Shown here: piece by piece, positions 402 to 64,000 of the stretch
How positions within the stretch are numbered: position 1 is the first letter of the stretch
How the letters are laid out: every line of letters begins with the position of its first letter
IMG/VR virus record: IMGVR_UViG_3300021400_000072
DNA from: a virus
Direction: 5' to 3' (one strand)
DNA length: 64,000 nt
Position numbers and translations under genes: made by a program
The notes under the pieces: generated by a model
Database searches by the model: none
What the model was told of the DNA's origin: nothing
The model's input: only the letters and a program-made list of their open reading frames with translations

Positions 402-792
402 TAGAAGCGAAGGGATTCGAACCCTCAATCCTTGCGGTAACGGATTTTCTTACTACTCTATGTCACCATAGCCATCTTAAAGATGTTGTAGTCTGGACTA
501 TGTCTTTGCCATATTATTTCTAACTTAGGCAGATGGTATATAGTCTCTACACATTTATAAATAAAAAGGCTGTTTATCAAAATCCATTTAACTACAGCGT
601 TATACGAACTCGCCACTATCAAATTGGCTTCCTCAGTCTGTCGTAGCACCCTTTTATTTAATTTAGCTCGGCGTTCTCTTAGCTATTCGCCGAATTAGCC
701 ATCTCCACTTATATCATTTCTGATATAAGGCTCTCCTTTTATGTTTACTAAGAAAAAAGTCCGTCGTGTATACCAGTTCCACCACGCTTCCA
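402..792 (-). tRNA. tRNA-Leu(UAA) interrupted by a ~310-nt group I-like intron in the anticodon loop
   Basis: 5' exon GGAAGCG..ACGGA-CTT (785-757), 3' exon AAAA-TCCGT + long variable arm + T-arm GAGGG-TTCGAAT-CCCTT + CGCTTCT (441-402). The acceptor pairs with two wobbles. Spliced loop CTTAAAA gives anticodon UAA. Intron lies between U34 and A35, ends in G, and has P7-like AGACTA...TAGTC. Confidence 0.6.
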
Positions 793-2912: not shown

Positions 2913-3311
2913 ATAAAAATGGGAACTTATATTAACACTGTATCCCCTGATAGGTTTGCGCTAGCCTTATCTTACAGCGGGTTTTCCTAAGTCCAGTTTT
3001 CCTTGTCATTCCCATGCATTTATATACCGAGCGAGAACAGACGCGGTTATTGCGGCAATAAAAATTTTTTAAAAATGCAAACTTTTATCTTTATAACGTA
3101 TGACACTGCACCTAAAGTCATATTGACATACTTTATGTTAGGATTCTAAAAAATTTAGTATACATTAATTAATTAGCTATGGACGCATGTTTTCCTACCC
3201 TATTATAAAGATAAGTTGCGGGCTGGCGCCTTGCCCTAAACGGTTTTACGACCTCACCGTCTTAACGTCTACGTTTTGTCCATCAGGAGCGACCTGCTTT
3301 GCAGTAGCCAA

Positions 3312-55356: not shown

Positions 55357-55454
55357 TAGGGCTAAATAATTTAATTTTGATCGCTCTCTTTGTATAAATA
55401 TACAAAGAGAGCGATTTTTTTATTTTATTTGAAATATAAAGGAGGAGATAATTA

Positions 55455-58400
55455 ATGGCTCAACAAGGAGGAAGAATAGATTTTCAAATAGGTTTTAAAA
55501 CCGATAAATCTGGAATATAGGATTTAAAGAAATCTTTACAATAGATACAAAAGATTAAACCTGCGAATTTCGATGGCACAAATCAAGATTTGCAAGAAGT
55601 TAAATCTACTGCTAAAGAAGTTGAGGCAGCGTTATCTAAGGCTTTTAATCCTAATATTAATTCTATAAATTTAAAAACATTTGATAATCAATTAAAAGCG
55701 TCAGGTAAAACTATAAATGATATATATACAAGTTTTTCTAAAGCTGGCGCACAAGGCTAGGTCGCATTTAGTCAAATGGCTAGGTCTGTACTTACCACAA
55801 ATCAGCAATTAAAAGAAACACATAGTATTATTAATTAGATGGGTACAACATTTGTTAATACTATTAAATGGGGTGTTGCATCTAGTATAATGAATACTTT
55901 TACAGCAAGTGTTCAAGGTGCTTTCACATATGTTGAAAGTTTAGAGAAATCTTTAACAAATATTAGAATTGTTACTGGTGATTCCCAAGAGAAGATGGAG
56001 CAATTTGCGGATTCTGCTAACCGTGCCGCTCAAGAATTGGGCCGTAGCACTATGGATTATAGTAAGGCCGCACTTACTTTCTATCAACAGGGTTTAGGAG
56101 AAGAAGATGTTCAGGCTAGAACTGAAGCCGTTTTAAAAGCATAGAATATTACTGGCGCGGGCTCATAGATGGCAGATTACTTAACCGCAGTGTGGAATGG
56201 TTATAAAGTCGCTAATGAATAGGCGTAGGTTTATGTCGATAAGCTCGCCGCAGTTGCAGATAGAAGTGCTTCTGACATGAGTTAGTTAGCTATTGGTATG
56301 TCTAAAGTTGCGTCTACTGCTAATACAATGGGTGTAAATGTAGATCAATTAAATGCTCAATTGGCTACTGTTATTGCTACAACAAGACAGGCGCCAGAAG
56401 CTGTCGGTACAGCATTTAAGACTATATATACTCGTTTGAATGATATTAAAACTGGCGCGGATGGTGCTTAGGTAAGTTTAGGAAACTATTCTGGTAAGAT
56501 GGCAGCATTAGGTTTTAATGTTCTTGATGCTACAGGTCATCTTAGAGATACAGGATAGGTTATGTAGGAAATAGGTGCCCGCTGGGAAGACTTAACAAGA
56601 GAACAACAAGTTTATTTGGCTACTACAATGGGTGGTCAAAGACAGGTTAACCAGTTAATGGCTCTATTTGACAACTGGACTACATATAGTGAATTATTAA
56701 ATACATCCCTTGAATCTGAAGGTACTCTTGCACAGAAAAACTCTGTTTATTTAGAGTCTCTTGGTGCTAAGATGGAACAATTAGGAGCAGCAGGAGAACG
56801 TGTAAAAGCTAGTTTAATTGATAATGAGAGTTTTGGTAATGTTATTGAATTATTAACAACTGGAACTAATTTATTAGGCAGTTTCATTTAGGCTATCGGC
56901 GGCGGTGGCACTGCTTTACTTGGATTAGGCGGTATCGCTACGCAAGTTTTTAGTGGCGTTATTTCTAAAGAAATTAATAATGCTATTGTTAATTTTCAAA
57001 ATATGAAATTTAATGCTTAGCAAACTGCAAAAGAATTATAGCTTACTCAACAGTTTGGAGAAAGAAATAATTTTGATCAATCTAAAGTTATTGATTAGAT
57101 GTTAAAAGCTAAACAATAGATGCAAGGATATTACTCTGTAATGTCTACTGAATAGAGAAATGCTTATAATGAATTAGTCAATGCTTTAGGTGTTGCTAAA
57201 GAGCAAGTTATTACAGAAGAAGATAAAATAAAAAAAGCTGAATAGTACAATAAAGCTTTACAAGCAGTTGCTGATGAATATTAGATAGATCTTTAGGCTC
57301 AACGGTTAGGAGTTGTAGAATATACTGATAGCATTACTAATTTATTAAATAATTTAAAAAAGGGATCAGGAGATAAATCTACTCTTTTTGCAGATTTAAA
57401 TTTACAAATTGAAGAATTAGAAACTAATTTAGGAACAATGTCTCCTAAATTAAAATCTATGTTTGAATAGCTTAAATCTCTACAAGGAGAAAAGGAAGAT
57501 AAAGATAGAATTTTAGCAGCTTTTTTCCCAAATGGAGATAAAGGACTTTAGCAATAGTCTTAGGCATTAAGAAGAAAAATTACAAATTTAATAAATTAGA
57601 TTAATAATGAAGTAAAAAATTTAACAGATTTAAGTATAGATATTGATGTTCATACTAAAGGATTAAAAGAAGCTAAAGAAGATTTGGCAAAAGCAGAAGA
57701 AGCTGTTAAGAATTATCAAAAAACAATGTCTCAAGCTTTAGATGTAAAGAATATAGTTTCAGGCATTGGAGAAATAGGTCGAATGTCATCTGCTTTTATG
57801 GCATTAGGAAATAGTATAAAAACAGCATTCGATTCTAACATATCTCCTTCTGAAAAATTTTTTAAAATTTTAATGAGTGCTTCTTACTCTATTCCTACGA
57901 TAGTAACTAGTTTTGAAAGATTAAAAACTTATACTAAATCTTTATCTGATGCTATAAAGGCGGCTAACATTGTAAAATAGGCATAGAATAAAATAGATAC
58001 TGCTAAAGCAGCGATTCAAGAAAAAGAAATTGCTAATAATGCAATAGAAAGTGGACAGAGAATAGCAGAGGCCACAGAAGAAGGTATAGTTACAACAGCT
58101 AAAGGTGCAGAAACAGTTGCTACTAATTTATTAGCAGCAGCTTAGGAAAGATTAGCAGCCGCAAGAGCAACAAATCCTTTAGGTTTAACTTTATTGGTAA
58201 TTGCTGGCGCAGTTTTAGCTATAAAAGGTCTTACTGCGGCATATGATGCTGTTACTATGTCTACTGAATAGGCAGGTTAGGCTATTGATAAATTTAATCA
58301 AAAAGCAGAACAAACTAAAAATACAATCAAATAGTATAATACTAATATTAGTAATTTAGATGCTGCTAAGGAAGAGTGGGAAGAGCTAGCTGATCGTGCT

Positions 58401-61400
58401 GGAAGTTATAATACAACTATTGATAACTTAACAGAAGACGAAAAGGCACGTTATTTTGAATTAAGCAATTTAATTGCTCAATATAATGAAGGTGCTGTTC
58501 AAGGATATGATGAACAAGGCAATGCAATTATTGCAAATAATGACGCTTTAAAAGAAACTATTTAGTTATTAAAACAAAAACGTCAAGAAGAAATTAATGA
58601 CACTTATTCAGGTGAAGATTTTTAGTAGGCTCAAAAAGGTCGTCAAGCCTATGCTAAAGACGCAAATAAACAAGGTAAAAAATTTACTAATATTGCAGAA
58701 GGCTCTGCTAATGAGATTTTAGATTATCTAAATTCATATGGAAATGATTTAGATGATGGATTAACAGGGTTTAGAGATAGACTTGCTGAGATTACTGCTA
58801 AAGGCGAAAAAGGTATATTAGAACATCAGGAAGAACTTATTCAAATTTTTGAAAAGTTAATGGAAAGTGGAAAATTACCTGACGCTTATATGTCACAACC
58901 CATTTTAGATACTTTAAAAGATTATAGTGATAAATATACTGATGATATAAAGGGAGCCTTAGATGGTTTTAACGAAGATGTAATTGGTGTACTTCAAGTT
59001 TCTACAGATAACGAAGGTTCTAATTTTACTAAAGCAGAATAGGCTGGCTTAACAAATATGAGAGGAATCGTTTCTTCTTATATAGAAGGAATGGATAAAT
59101 ATAACCCAGACGGAACTTTAAAAACACCTTAGGAAATTGCTAAACAAGTTTAGAAAGAAATTGTAACTCCTATTTATGAAAGTCTTGGTCAAATTGATCC
59201 TTAGACAGAAGAAAGTTTATATCAAAAATTAATTAAAAGTATTACAGAAGACGATAAATTACAAAATAATGATTTTAGCAGTTTAGAAGAAAAAAATAAT
59301 TATATCGTTCAAAAAATAGAAGATTTTATCCAATCTAATATTGAAGCATTTGAAAATTTAACTCCTGATGCTAAAAAAGCATTAGAAGATTTGTTTGCTA
59401 ATTTATATAATTTAGATAGTTTAAAAATTAATTTTAAAACTGGAAAAGTAGAATAGTCTGTAGATAAAGCATTAGATAGATTAGCAAAAAGGATTAACAA
59501 AGATTGGGATGAGCTTGATGCAAAAACTCAAGATAAAAAGAGAAACGCTTTAACCTCAATATTAAAATCTGATATAGATGAAAAAGAATTAGATTATATT
59601 ACATAGCATATAGAAAAAGCTATAAAAATATATGGTAATGAAGTTGAAGCAATAAAAGCATTACAGGAATAGGCTTCTAAATTAGGTAATTTAGATGATA
59701 ATTTAAACACTATGAGTTTGTTAGACAAACAAGCTAGTGGAGAAAAATTAGGTCAAAAAGAACAATAGTCTTTATAGTCTGGATTAAATACTTTAAAAGA
59801 TAGTTATCCTGATTTAATCAAGCAAGTTTAGATTCTTCAAACATAGTGGATGCAAGGTACTTCCGCCTATGAATAGGCTTTAAGAAAAGTAAAAATGGCT
59901 TTAATAGATACATTAGGAGAATCTTTAAATAAAGCTTTACTTTAGGCAGAAGATAGTGTTTTATAGCAAGAAAAAGCATTATAGGATTATAATAATAAAA
60001 TTTTAGATTTAACAAGAACTACTGAAGATTATCAAACAATTTTACGATTAAGCAAAGTAACAGATTAGACTAAACAACAAAGTTTAATTAAAATTGCAAC
60101 AAGCTACGAAAGTTGTAGAGATTAGTTAGAAAAATATTATAAAACAATACAAGAACATCCTGACGATTTATAGGCACAAGAACCCGAAAGATTTGCGCTA
60201 GAGCGTTCTACCAGAGCAGCAGAAAATGGAGAGCAGTTTGGTATTGATCCAGAACGTATTCAAACTTTAGCGGCACAATATTCTGAATTAGCAGACCAAG
60301 AAGCAGCAGGATATGAAGGTTTAAATTAGAATGCAGAATTAGCAGCAGACGCCGCCACTCGTTATATTAGACTTAATGATGCTATTGCTGATTTACAACA
60401 AAATTATGATAAAGTAACATCTGTTTTGTCTGATTTACGAACTTTAGGACTAGAAGAAATTGCGGCAAATAAAGATTTATCTGATACTTTTCAACAGATA
60501 AAAAAAGATGTTGCAGGAATAGTGGATACGTCAGAAGATTTAATTGGAGATGACTGGATAAAAGATCATGCTGGTTAGATTCAAGCTGCTTTAGAAGGTG
60601 ATCAATAGGCCATAGATAGTTTACGAGAAGCTGCTCAAGAAGAAATTTTAACTAATGTAGGTATCGATTTTGAAGGTTTTGATGAACAAAAAGCAGGATT
60701 TTTATCTCGCTTAAATGAATTAGAAGATGGTGCTGATATAACAGCAGAAATGTCTTTAGATGATGTAGCTTTTCTTCAAAATCTTGTTTCTGCTATGTAG
60801 CAAGCTGGCATGGCGCAAGCAGATATTGAAAATGCTTTAAGCGGACTTGGAATAGATGTTGATTTAGCTCCTTATGAAGAAGGATTAAATTCTGCCATTG
60901 ATCAAGCTGCAGAAGCGGGAATGCTTTCTTCTGATGCTTTTGCAGGCAATGCAGGTGTAAATTCTACTATAACTACTTCTACGGATACTGCCCAAGATAC
61001 AGTATAGGCTCCTGGTTATGATGTGACTCCAACAGACGTTCCTTTTAGCATTTCTTTACCTGTAGTTGCACCTGCAATGTATCCAGGAGTAGCAATTCCT
61101 ACTTTTACAGGAGGAATTGCTACTGCACCAGGCTCTTATCCCTCAATTGAAGTTACTCCTAAAACAGAGTCTGTTGAAGCTACCAAAGAAACAACTGGAA
61201 CGGGTTTATAGGTAGTAGGTGCGAGAAAATCTTCTGGTGGTAAAGTTAGTCATAAAAATGCATCAGGTGGTAATAAAAAATCTTCTGGTGGTAAAGGTAA
61301 AGGCGGTAAAGGTAAAAAAGGAGGAGGTAAAAAAGGCTCAACTAAAACTCCTAAAGTTTAGAAACCTATTACAGATAAACCTGACCGTTACCATGATGTA

Positions 61401-64000
61401 AATCTTAAATTAAAAGATATTGATAATGATTTAGGCAAACTTCAGAAAAAATAGCAAAAATTAACTGGCAAAGATTTACTTAAAAATCTTAATGAGCAAT
61501 TAAAACTTCTTGAAAAACAAGTAGCTACTTATAAAGAAAAAATTTAGTTAGAAAAACAATAGGCTGATTAGATTCGTAATCGTTTAAAGAAATAGGGCGC
61601 TACATTTGGTCCTGACGGTAATATATCTAATTATAATAAAGTTCTTTCTGATGCTTTAAATGAATATAATGCAACTATCGCTAAATATAATAAAATGAGT
61701 GCGGAAGAGCAATAGAAAAATAAAGATATGCTCGAAAAGGCTAAATAGAAATATGAAAATCTCAAGAAAGATATTTAGCGTTACGATAAAATTATATCTG
61801 AAGAAATTCCTGGATTAGAGAAAGCTGTACAAGAAGCAATAGATAAACAAACTTAGATTAACATTCAAAAATTTAAAGTTAAAGTAGATTTAGAGATGGA
61901 TATGTCTGAAGCATAGCGTGAATTTAATTAGTTTGTTAAGAAAGTAAAAAAACAACTAAGAGATGACGATGTTCTTGGAAATGCTCAGGCATATTTAAAA
62001 GATTATTCTTCTTATTATAAAGGCGGGTATGATGTAATTCAAGCGTTAACGGATCAAATCCGTAATACTAGAAATTAGATTAATAATATTGATAAACAAG
62101 GTTCTTCTTCGGTATACGGAAAAGATAGGGCGGCCGCAATTAAAGATTTACAAGAATATACTAAAGAGTTAATGAGCAATCTTTCAGATATAGAAGATGT
62201 TGTTGCAAATATTAAAAATACTATCTTTGATGCTATTGATAAGGCTCAAGATGCTTTTGATGAACAAAAGAAAGAGTATGAATATATTGCAGATTTAATT
62301 GAACATAATCAAAAGGTTGTATAGTTATTATATGGTGAAGATGCTTATAATCAATTATAGGAATATTATAAATTACAATAGAAGAATAATAATAATCAAT
62401 TAGATTTTTTAAGACGGCAAAAAGAAATGTGGTATTCTCGTATGGAAGCAGAGCGGAAGAGGATGAATAATCTTACTGAAGGTACAAACGCCTGGAAAGA
62501 AGCTAACGACCGCTTTGAAGAATATAAGAGACATTGGATGGATTCTTTGGATGAAATTAATGGTTAGATTTAGAACTCTATTGAGAATTTAATTGATAAA
62601 TATACTAATGCTGTTGATAAAATCTTTTTAGCTTTTGAGAATAATATTACTGGCGGAAAAGGCTTAGAAAATATTTCTGAGGAATGGTAGTTAATCGGCA
62701 AGCAAGCGGATCAATATTTAGATAAAGTAAATTCTATGTATGAGATTGATAAACTTGAAAATGCTTATAGGGATGCTATTGATGATAATGACGGTAATTT
62801 AAAAGCACAACAATCTTTAAATAATTTAATGAATGAACAATTAAAATATTTAAAGGATAAAGATAAATTAACTCAATATGATGTTGATAGAGCAAATGCT
62901 TTATTACAAATTGAAATTAAACGTTTAGCTTTAGAGCAAGCTCGTCAAAGTAAAACTAAATTACGTTTAAGAAGAGACTCGCAAGGTAATTATACTTATC
63001 AATATACTGCGGATGAAGATGCTACAAGACAGGCTCAACAAGAACTCGCGGATGCTGAAAACAGTCTATATAATTTAACGAAATAGTCATATAAAAATAA
63101 TTTAGATGATTATTATGATACTACGGAAGAAATGAATGAAAAGATAAGGGATGTATATAAGGATACAACTTTATCTGCAGAAGAGCAAAATCAAAAAATT
63201 GCTATGATTTATGAATATTATGGTGATATTATAAATGGTTTAACATAGCAAAATGAAGATTTAAAGAGATTTATGATGGAAGATACATTTAATGAAATGG
63301 CTAAAATGTATGATACCAACGTATAGAACTTTAAAAATATGACAGATGAAGAAAAAGATATTTTTATGAATGATATGGTTCCTTATTGGAAATCAAGTAT
63401 TCAAGATATGGCTGATACTTTTGCGGGCGCAGGTGGTTTTGGTCCTATAACGTAGGATCTATTTAAAGATTTAATAGATAATTCTAAAGATTATCAAGAT
63501 TCATTAGATGAAATAGGTAAAGTTGCAAATGTTAGTTTAGAATAGATTAAAAATGCTACAGATATAAATATTCAAAGAGCAGAATCATTATTAGAAAAAA
63601 ATGATGAATTAATTAATTCTTATAATAAAGAAATGACAAAAGTACAAGAGGTTATTAATCAAGTAAATGCATTAACTAATGCTTATCAAAAGGCTAAAAA
63701 TGAAGCAATTGCCGCGACATAGGCCGCTTATAATTTTAATCAACAAGATAATGCTAAGACAGTAAGTTCTTTAATAAACAATAAAAAGACTGCGGGAGAT
63801 GCTCAATATAGAAAAGCGGCATCTTTCGATACCGGAGGATATACTGGAGATTGGGGTGATATGGGAAAAGCAGCAATCTTACATGAAAAAGAGATTGTAT
63901 TAAATTCTTATGACACAACTAACCTTTTATCGGCGGTTAAAATTACAAGAACATTAGATAATATTATATCTAATTTTGCAATGAAGCCTTTCACTCTTGG
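55455..64000 (+). CDS. tail tape measure protein (partial, >2840 aa), heavily TAG-recoded
   Basis: One continuous frame from ATG 55455 (RBS GGAGGAG) to the window end; frame continuity checked across several ORF-track fragments. K/G-rich linker at 61230-61370 and coiled-coil segments. Confidence 0.6.

Follow-up and report, generated by a model that had tools for sequence, protein, structure and literature searches.

The intron of the cyanobacterial and plastid tRNA-Leu(UAA) gene is the textbook "oldest intron", and whether it owes its distribution to descent or to lateral transfer has long been argued. It lies between U34 and A35 of the anticodon in genes carried by a cell or a plastid, and is reportedly the subject of studies by Kuhsel and colleagues in 1990 and Zaug and colleagues in 1993. 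The cyanobacterial version is described as self-splicing in vitro and as requiring the anticodon stem, in the account that a 2026 survey of complete genomes gives of its reference 29 (PMC13011429, section 7). Phages carry group I introns as well, often with HNH or other homing endonucleases, and the familiar examples (T4 td, nrdB and nrdD, Twort, SPO1, crAss-like phages) interrupt protein genes; a 2014 review placed all phage introns then known in protein-coding genes, despite the many tRNA genes that phages encode (PMC3984707, section 11). Here we report evidence that a tRNA-Leu(UAA) gene in a 64,000-nt stretch of viral DNA (IMG/VR record IMGVR_UViG_3300021400_000072; this whole stretch is called the window below) is interrupted by a group I intron between U34 and A35. 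Our search of the full-text literature, which included a 2025 phage-intron paper and whose incomplete coverage does not prove absence, returned no description of a group I intron in a phage tRNA gene, and the phage tRNA setting of the tRNA-Leu intron appears to be undescribed.

The gene occupies positions 791-402 of the minus strand and is a complete, intron-containing class II tRNA-Leu(UAA) gene, both by reading of the sequence and by ARAGORN. In that direction it runs GGAAGCG-UG-GUGG...ACAC-G-ACGGA-CUU, 308 nt of intervening sequence, AAAA-UCCGU, a long variable arm, GAGGGUUCGAAUCCCUU, CGCUUCU and A. The 35-nt 5' exon (791-757) comprises the acceptor 5' strand GGAAGCG (791-785), the D-arm, the anticodon-stem strand ACGGA (764-760) and C32 U33 U34 (759-757). 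The 3' exon (448-402) opens with A35 A36 A37 A38 (448-445) and the opposite stem strand UCCGU (444-440), and continues through the long variable arm and T-arm to the acceptor 3' strand CGCTTCT (409-403) and the discriminator A402. The anticodon stem can still form from the two exons across the interruption (764-760 with 444-440). A preliminary description of this DNA, made from its letters, had proposed the same arrangement; we read both halves as it gave them, from the D-arm, ACGGA and CTT of the first to the AAAA-TCCGT, variable arm, T-arm and 409-403 acceptor strand of the second, and only its placement of the acceptor 5' half at 792-786 was one base off, the pairing itself holding.

With intron detection, ARAGORN called tRNA-Leu(taa) on the raw window DNA as c[401,791] with i(36,308), which places the insertion between U34 and A35. 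In its default mode, with intron detection off, it made no call at this locus. In-silico removal of 756-449 left an 83-nt class II tRNA-Leu(UAA) with the 7-nt loop CUUAAAA, close to the loss of about 310 nt and exactly the loop expected beforehand; the structure that ARAGORN draws for the product is a cloverleaf with a long variable arm, a G1.U72 wobble and the anticodon UAA. The gene encodes no CCA end, and ARAGORN found no second tRNA-Leu(UAA) in the 64-kb window. The minimum free energy fold of the region lies at z=-3.55 relative to shuffled sequences. The split tRNA-Leu(UAA) gene is confirmed as real.

The intervening sequence (756-449, 308 nt, minus strand) has every core helix of a group I intron intact. 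P1 (759-731) pairs CUU|UUUU (759-753), which spans the exon-intron junction, with the internal guide AGGAGAG (737-731), setting U34 (757) opposite G733 in the splice-site U.G wobble. P2 (729-708) is a hairpin of 729-721 with 716-708 capped by a GAAA tetraloop (720-717). P3 is a long-range helix of GAUGG (703-699) with CCAUC (536-532) that forms a pseudoknot with P7. P4 (693-668) pairs UCGGCG (693-688) with CGCCGA (673-668) and encloses a reduced P5 region of 14 nt (AAUAGCUAAGAGAA, 687-674). Positions 667-546 accommodate J6/7 and a P6 lengthened by about 85 nt; this extension, predicted to form a long stem that branches at a three-way junction, holds the module GGUGCUAnGA...AAAUGGAnUUnGAnnAACAGC. 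P7, the expected guanosine-binding helix, joins GACUAU (545-540) to AUAGUC (501-496), the two halves in which the preliminary description had recognized a P7-like element, and encloses the 3' strand of P3 together with P8 (530-521 with 516-508). The CCUAAG...UAUGG element within P8 resembles a tetraloop receptor. The closing stem of P9, ACUAC (492-488) with GUAGU (456-452), ends in a three-way junction (492-452) from which the hairpins P9a (485-473) and P9b (471-458, with a GUGA loop) arise; AAG follows P9, and the intron ends, as had been noted, in a terminal guanosine (omega-G), G449. Folding located P1, with the exon U paired to the guide, and the helices from P3 to P9, P5 appearing only as the 14-nt segment.

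Introns of subgroup IC3 combine a compact core that lacks P5abc with a GNRA loop on P2, an 11-nt-type receptor (CCUAAG...UAUGG) in P8 and a GNRA loop on P9. The window intron, with GAAA on P2, CCUAAG...UAUGG within 530-508 and GUGA on P9b, appears to be IC3-like, a kind known from the tRNA genes of bacteria. The IC3 intron in the tRNA-Ile(CAU) gene of Azoarcus, reportedly described by Reinhold-Hurek and Shub in 1992, presumably has in common with it the strings AAUUCGGCGAA and GUGUAGAGACUA, the P8 element CCUAAG...UAUGG and AUAGUCCAG, and we take its P2 GAAA loop to dock into the P8 receptor; the Azoarcus intron differs in interrupting another tRNA at another site. Within the window intron the sole open reading frame (ORF; 649-458, 63 aa, GTG start) was considered as a degenerate endonuclease and rejected, having no Pfam match and no HNH motif, so that this copy lacks a homing endonuclease.

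The fold is borne out by relatives of the intron. To gather a viral comparison set we used a 17-mer from the window, ATAGTCCAGACTACAAC, which takes in the P7 3' strand and runs into the beginning of P9; the same intron core is present on at least 120 viral contigs. Alignment A1 comprised 16 sequences, the short members of this set plus the window, with the group I structure written so that P7 is a pseudoknot, and was compared on five measures with controls in which pairing partners were slid by 1-3 columns and with 500 shuffles. In A1, 89.3% of cells were paired, against 30-42% in the slid controls, 39 pairs were altered on both sides, and none of the 500 shuffles attained any of the five measures. 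The P1 exon pairs C-G, U-A and U.G were unvarying in all 16 sequences. P2 showed changes on both sides at eight of its nine pairs in relatives; compensatory change affected all five pairs of P3 (100% of cells paired), four of six in P4 (99% paired), four of five in P9a and all five in P9b, and the inner and outer pairs of P8 also covaried. The base of P6 covaried with only 66% of cells paired, blurred by the MAFFT alignment, and P7 was invariant with 97% paired; covariation supports the P3/P7 pseudoknot. The anticodon stem, divided between the exons, was 97.5% paired in relatives with three compensatory pairs, and the terminal G was conserved in a 22-sequence alignment, apart from a one-base register shift in one sequence (L104). 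A hidden Markov model (HMM) of the family built without the window matched it at 763-441 on the minus strand (E=9.8e-50, 163.5 bits), its sole match in the 64 kb.

Among the viral loci that we fetched, 59 hold a tRNA-Leu(UAA) gene split at the same site and valid by ARAGORN after in-silico splicing at CUU|...G|AAAA. Over 214 core columns, viral locus L012 is 92% identical to the window intron and L119, L122 and L022 about 85%. The closest relatives again have the split gene within phage tRNA arrays, on contigs that have hardly any further DNA in common with the window (a single 93-bp match, in L114). The short-P5 design recurs in L012 and L119, and similarly in L122, L102 and L022; these copies differ otherwise by compensatory changes, indicating selection on the fold. 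Other short viral relatives, of 205-230 nt, have an ordinary P5 and lack the P6 extension. The extension module (80-105 nt) recurs in L026 (2151-2248), L094 (784-877) and L114 (138-242, minus strand); it sits in P6 in the window and L094 and in P9 in L026, and may be a portable tertiary-contact domain that offsets a minimal P5. An exact 32-mer from the extension in the window matched nothing in the IMG/VR collection searched, which therefore lacks the contig that the window comes from. A further observation concerns L018 and L092, where a tRNA-like sequence with D-arm-like GUUCAAGUGGUAGAAC and T-arm-like GGUUCGAAUCC elements is nested in P9a of the intron.

The same insertion is widespread in cells. 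The pattern AGAGACT..AGTCCA..GAAAATC matched at least 120 species genomes, and 86 of the 120 cellular matches listed are tRNA-Leu(UAA) genes split at 34/35, in Alpha- and Gammaproteobacteria, Acidobacteriota, Cyanobacteria, Bacteroidota, Planctomycetota, Clostridia, Bacilli and others. The pattern search is consistent with the 2026 survey, which found the 34/35 insertion across many bacterial phyla (PMC13011429, section 8); some of those introns, in Bacteroidota, bear HNH endonucleases, the same class as in the long viral relatives described below. The cellular copies closest to the window come from gut or rumen metagenome-assembled genomes (Clostridiales, Prevotellaceae, Bacteroidales, Bacilli), and the best of them are about 71-77% identical over some 75-130 nt of the 3' part of the intron, as against the 92% core identity of L012. 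Across 96 viral and bacterial sequences, 57 of the 214 core columns are at least 95% conserved.

How far the locus resembles the cyanobacterial and plastid intron can now be specified. The two share the host gene, the U34/A35 insertion and the 3' exon start AAAAUCC. Their cores agree in the guide GAG with exon CUU, the GAAA loop of P2, P4, GUGYAGAGACU and AGUCCA, and in a three-way P9 closed just ahead of the terminal G. The tRNA-Leu introns of Nostocaceae and Nodularia are collinear with the window intron through every core segment. The window also keeps intact the anticodon stem that the cyanobacterial intron needs, as the survey relates from its reference 29 (PMC13011429). The differences lie in the host, here a phage, and in the reduced P5 and extended P6. 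Core identity to eight cyanobacterial introns is 55-60% over the 214 columns; in a neighbour-joining tree these eight form an exclusive clade and the window joins six viral copies, the viral set having been ascertained with a word from the window. The match to the ancient cyanobacterial and plastid intron that had been claimed from the sequence therefore stands for insertion site and architecture and not for lineage: as judged by these comparisons, the window intron shares with it an insertion type and an architecture, not a line of descent.

The window is part of a tailed phage in which TAG has been recoded. Under the standard code it has only six ORFs of at least 250 aa. With TAG read as sense, a contiguous plus-strand array of late genes extends from 37.6 kb to the window end (64000); it contains 177 in-frame TAGs, and one frame spans at least 2849 codons (55452-64000). 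The recoded products include a portal protein (phrog_2739, E=3e-72), the terminase large subunit, a virion structural protein and an endolysin-like protein, and it is these genes together with TAG as sense that identify the phage. UUA makes up 391 of the 575 leucine codons in the late genes (68%). We found no amber-suppressor tRNA(CUA) in the tRNA array of the window or its gaps, nor further group I introns in those gaps.

Taken together, these findings make it likely (probability about 0.88) that the locus is a functional tRNA-Leu(UAA) gene with a self-splicing group I intron. Several observations weigh against this conclusion. In a local search, Rfam Intron_gpI (RF00028) aligned its full model (1-253) onto 766-476 with 31.5 bits (E=2.5e-6), the alignment ending at an internal AAG (476) because the model has a simple P9; this score falls short of the curated gathering score of 50, and a whole-window Rfam scan gave no group I match, either at the gathering score or by E-value. 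The covariance-model match that the preliminary description had named as a test of its proposal was obtained locally and lost in the full scan, a weak pass. P7, P9 and part of J7/9 are partly invariant by construction, being fixed by the 17-mer used in the search, and their constancy is therefore uninformative. Our reading of the sequence revealed no conventional P10 pairing between the 3' exon and the guide. A main reservation is the P5 of 14 nt, which is unusual for a P4-P6 domain and might weaken self-splicing or leave it in need of help from the P6 extension or a protein. Finally, a search for the ligated-exon junction ...ACGGACUU|AAAAUCCGU..., as a sign of a spliced transcript or of an allele lacking the intron, turned up nothing but unrelated tRNA-Leu(UAA) genes that have no intron and different acceptor stems. 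The gathering score is an annotation threshold and not a biological criterion, and the viral relatives likewise fall below it, the closest-relative contigs yielding no intron with Rfam at that score. The deciding evidence for a group I intron is comparative rather than the Rfam match. The valid spliced tRNA, the U.G wobble, the terminal G, the covarying core and the collinearity with cyanobacterial introns support the identification first made from the letters.

Could the intron be a decayed, non-splicing relic, the gene a pseudogene and the phage a user of the host tRNA? The P5 cut to 14 nt, the insertion of about 85 nt in P6, the sub-threshold Rfam score and the lack of an endonuclease gene to maintain the intron would all fit decay. 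Yet the core helices, the splice-site U.G and the terminal G are all in place, the short-P5 design occurs in other viral contigs with compensatory changes that indicate selection on the fold, the exons still make a perfect tRNA, and UUA accounts for 68% of late-gene leucine codons; we consider a relic very unlikely. In vivo, many introns of group I rely on proteins, and a genuine intron might likewise be no autonomous ribozyme here, needing a maturase or chaperone from phage or host, or a P6 extension that replaces P5. The combination of minimal P5 and P6-extension module shared with L026, L094 and L114 speaks for such dependence. Set against it are the short relatives (205-230 nt), which have an ordinary P5 and no extension, and the surroundings of the gene, where no candidate maturase adjoins it and the neighbouring 122-aa ORF matches no family. 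On this evidence we regard dependence on such a factor as unlikely.

Default ARAGORN and Rfam at the gathering score call nothing at the locus, as would be expected if the acceptor pairing were coincidental and two tRNA fragments flanked unrelated DNA. Recurrence of the split gene in 59 viral and 86 cellular loci refutes this, and the Rfam alignment, the spliced tRNA, the covariation, the ARAGORN intron call, the family HMM and the collinearity with cyanobacterial introns all contradict it, which leaves coincidence a negligible probability. Just as negligible is removal by a protein endonuclease and ligase of the archaeal or eukaryotic type, or by group II splicing. The anticodon loop is indeed where protein-spliced tRNA introns lie; the site here, however, is 34/35 and not the canonical 37/38, we know of no tRNA splicing endonuclease in bacteria or their phages, and the sequence fits the group I model and core, with a group I pseudoknot that covaries.

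For a self-splicing group I intron we infer the following course. The split gene would be transcribed with its neighbours, probably from a promoter at 1325-1297, and the intron would fold into its P1-P9 core. C32 U33 U34 would pair with the guide GAG (733-731), U34 (757) entering the U.G wobble, and a free guanosine held in P7 would attack after U34. G449 would next move into that site, and U34, its 3'-OH now free, would attack after G449 and so join the exons, which the anticodon stem (764-760 with 444-440) would hold together meanwhile. Such a role of the stem is experimental for the Anabaena pre-tRNA, as related in the survey from its reference 29 (PMC13011429). Host enzymes would trim the ends and must add CCA, as none is encoded. 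The spliced tRNA would supply the decoder for UUA, the dominant leucine codon of the phage.

The split gene belongs to a tRNA array on the minus strand of the first 6.6 kb, which adjoins a full-length ROOL RNA (1930-1338, minus strand; Rfam RF03087, 280.6 bits). This RNA lies directly upstream of the promoter, a 122-aa ORF (1254-886) and the split tRNA, and a ROOL-like string (GGUCGCUCC) occurs again near 3295 on the minus strand. The promoter (1325-1297, minus strand) is a consensus sigma-70 element, TTGACA-17-TATAAT, matching at 12 of 12 positions; no terminator was found between it and the split tRNA, the sole call there being the T-arm of the tRNA, and it probably drives the 122-aa ORF and the downstream tRNAs. 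The 122-aa ORF was also considered as a remnant of the DNA-binding part of a homing endonuclease and rejected, with no Pfam or PHROG support. Promoter-like boxes UUUUUAAAAAAUUUUU..UUAUAAUAUUUAUAGAAAGUGAAAG are repeated before several units of the array (about 2910-2865, 2450-2405, 3080-3050 and 1325-1275, minus strand), and gaps of 400-480 nt separate tRNAs.

Other elements of the array, all on the minus strand, are worth recording. At 2706-2650 lies a truncated tRNA-like element of 57 nt, perfect in its acceptor stem and T-arm (GCUCUAU...GUAGGUUCGACUCCUAC-AUAGAGC-A) and lacking a normal D or anticodon arm, which scores 29.6 bits against the Rfam tRNA model in a local search. In a gap at 4792-4689 there is a weak local match to bacterial 23S rRNA (model 1071-1179, 24 bits, E=2e-4), which may reflect chance or a structured RNA. 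The tRNA at 6395-6324 (51.3 bits with Rfam tRNA) is given by ARAGORN a four-base anticodon, "tttg", in an 8-nt loop.

The intron family is large and partly mobile, and the window copy is a non-autonomous member of it. More than half of the viral tRNA-Leu introns (33/59) exceed 500 nt; the survey of complete bacterial genomes gives 12 of 333 tRNA introns above 500 bp (PMC13011429, section 9). Long copies of 558-878 nt are found in L007, L028, L021 and L103, among others. Most long viral copies have a recognizable endonuclease ORF; those with intact frames (about 700-880 nt) encode HNH proteins (PF13392/PF01844) or, in one case, a LAGLIDADG_2 protein. In several of the long introns no ORF is intact when read with the standard code, which recoding might explain. 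A 26-bp segment of intron-less tRNA-Leu(UAA) DNA (ACACGACGGACTTAAAATCCGTTACC) is a putative homing target.

The family also occupies other tRNA genes. Eight viral contigs (L031, L032, L038, L044, L071, L076, L082 and L099, with an alternative parse for L076 and L099) carry it in amber-suppressor tRNA(CUA) genes at the 35/36 site, with the loop CUCU|AAC or CUCU|AAA, and it is found in viral tRNA-Arg(UCU), Lys(UUU), Leu(UAG) and Ile(UAU) as well. For such non-Leu genes the rule that the exon ends in U and the intron in G is too ambiguous to place the splice sites; pinning the 3' site by the terminus of the family resolved 85 of 123 loci. A self-splicing intron in a suppressor tRNA that recodes a stop codon could act as a gate on the code switch.

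Among GenBank phages, megablast with 20 kb of the window gave no meaningful match and a 222-nt compact relative gave none; a consensus of the 3' half of the intron matched Lak phages, IAS virus and LR756501. The deposited Lak megaphages carry the split tRNA-Leu gene, unannotated in their records. LR756501.1, an uncultured phage of 735 kb whose genome is among the largest known for phages and whose record has no annotation at all, encodes a tRNA-Leu(UAA) interrupted at 34/35 by an intron of 205 nt (L253, 764-1054; ARAGORN i(36,205); HMM E=7e-34). In Lak-C1 (L244, MK250029.1 331000-332800), the tRNA-Leu(UAA) gene at about 989-1720 appears to be interrupted twice by group I introns, in the D-loop (about 1011-1319, Rfam 41.8 bits) and at the 34/35 site (1333-1672), with exon 1 GGCGAGGUGGUGGAAUUGGU and exon 2 ACACGAGGGACUU, the D-loop junction being approximate; Lak-B1 (L002) looks the same. 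The 2026 survey of bacteria found no group I intron in a tRNA D-loop (PMC13011429). In IAS virus, a crAss-like phage, the DNA primase gene is annotated as two coding sequences about 500 nt apart (L003, 1250-1766; NC_049978.1), and the gap holds a P7-P3-P8 core 87-88% identical to that of the window intron, suggesting that the same intron lineage moves between protein and tRNA genes.

Our findings bear on the long argument over descent and lateral transfer of the tRNA-Leu(UAA) intron, and the insertion type is now seen, and proves common, in phage tRNA arrays: in the phage of the window, at least 59 other viral contigs, Lak megaphages and a 735-kb phage. The length of over half of the viral copies would accommodate a gene for a homing endonuclease, and a recognizable endonuclease ORF is present in most of these, which provides a tangible means of lateral transfer. 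The occurrence of introns in tRNA genes of phages contradicts the published generalisation that phage introns are confined to protein genes (PMC3984707). Because default ARAGORN and Rfam at the gathering score miss split genes, phage tRNA repertoires, including the suppressor tRNAs of recoded phages, are under-counted. A bolder proposal, which we hold at long odds, is that the intron is more than a selfish passenger and that phages retain it in the tRNAs they most need, Leu-UAA and, in eight viral contigs, tRNA(CUA). It could then work as a gate, dependent on guanosine and Mg, that sets when decoding capacity becomes available and, if the phage is recoded, when the code switches. A protective role is conceivable as well, shielding the gene from the HNH homing endonucleases of rival phages and the precursor from host anticodon nucleases. 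Under this proposal, phage tRNA arrays would in addition be the main reservoir of the "ancient" tRNA-Leu intron and the vehicle that spreads it between bacterial phyla.

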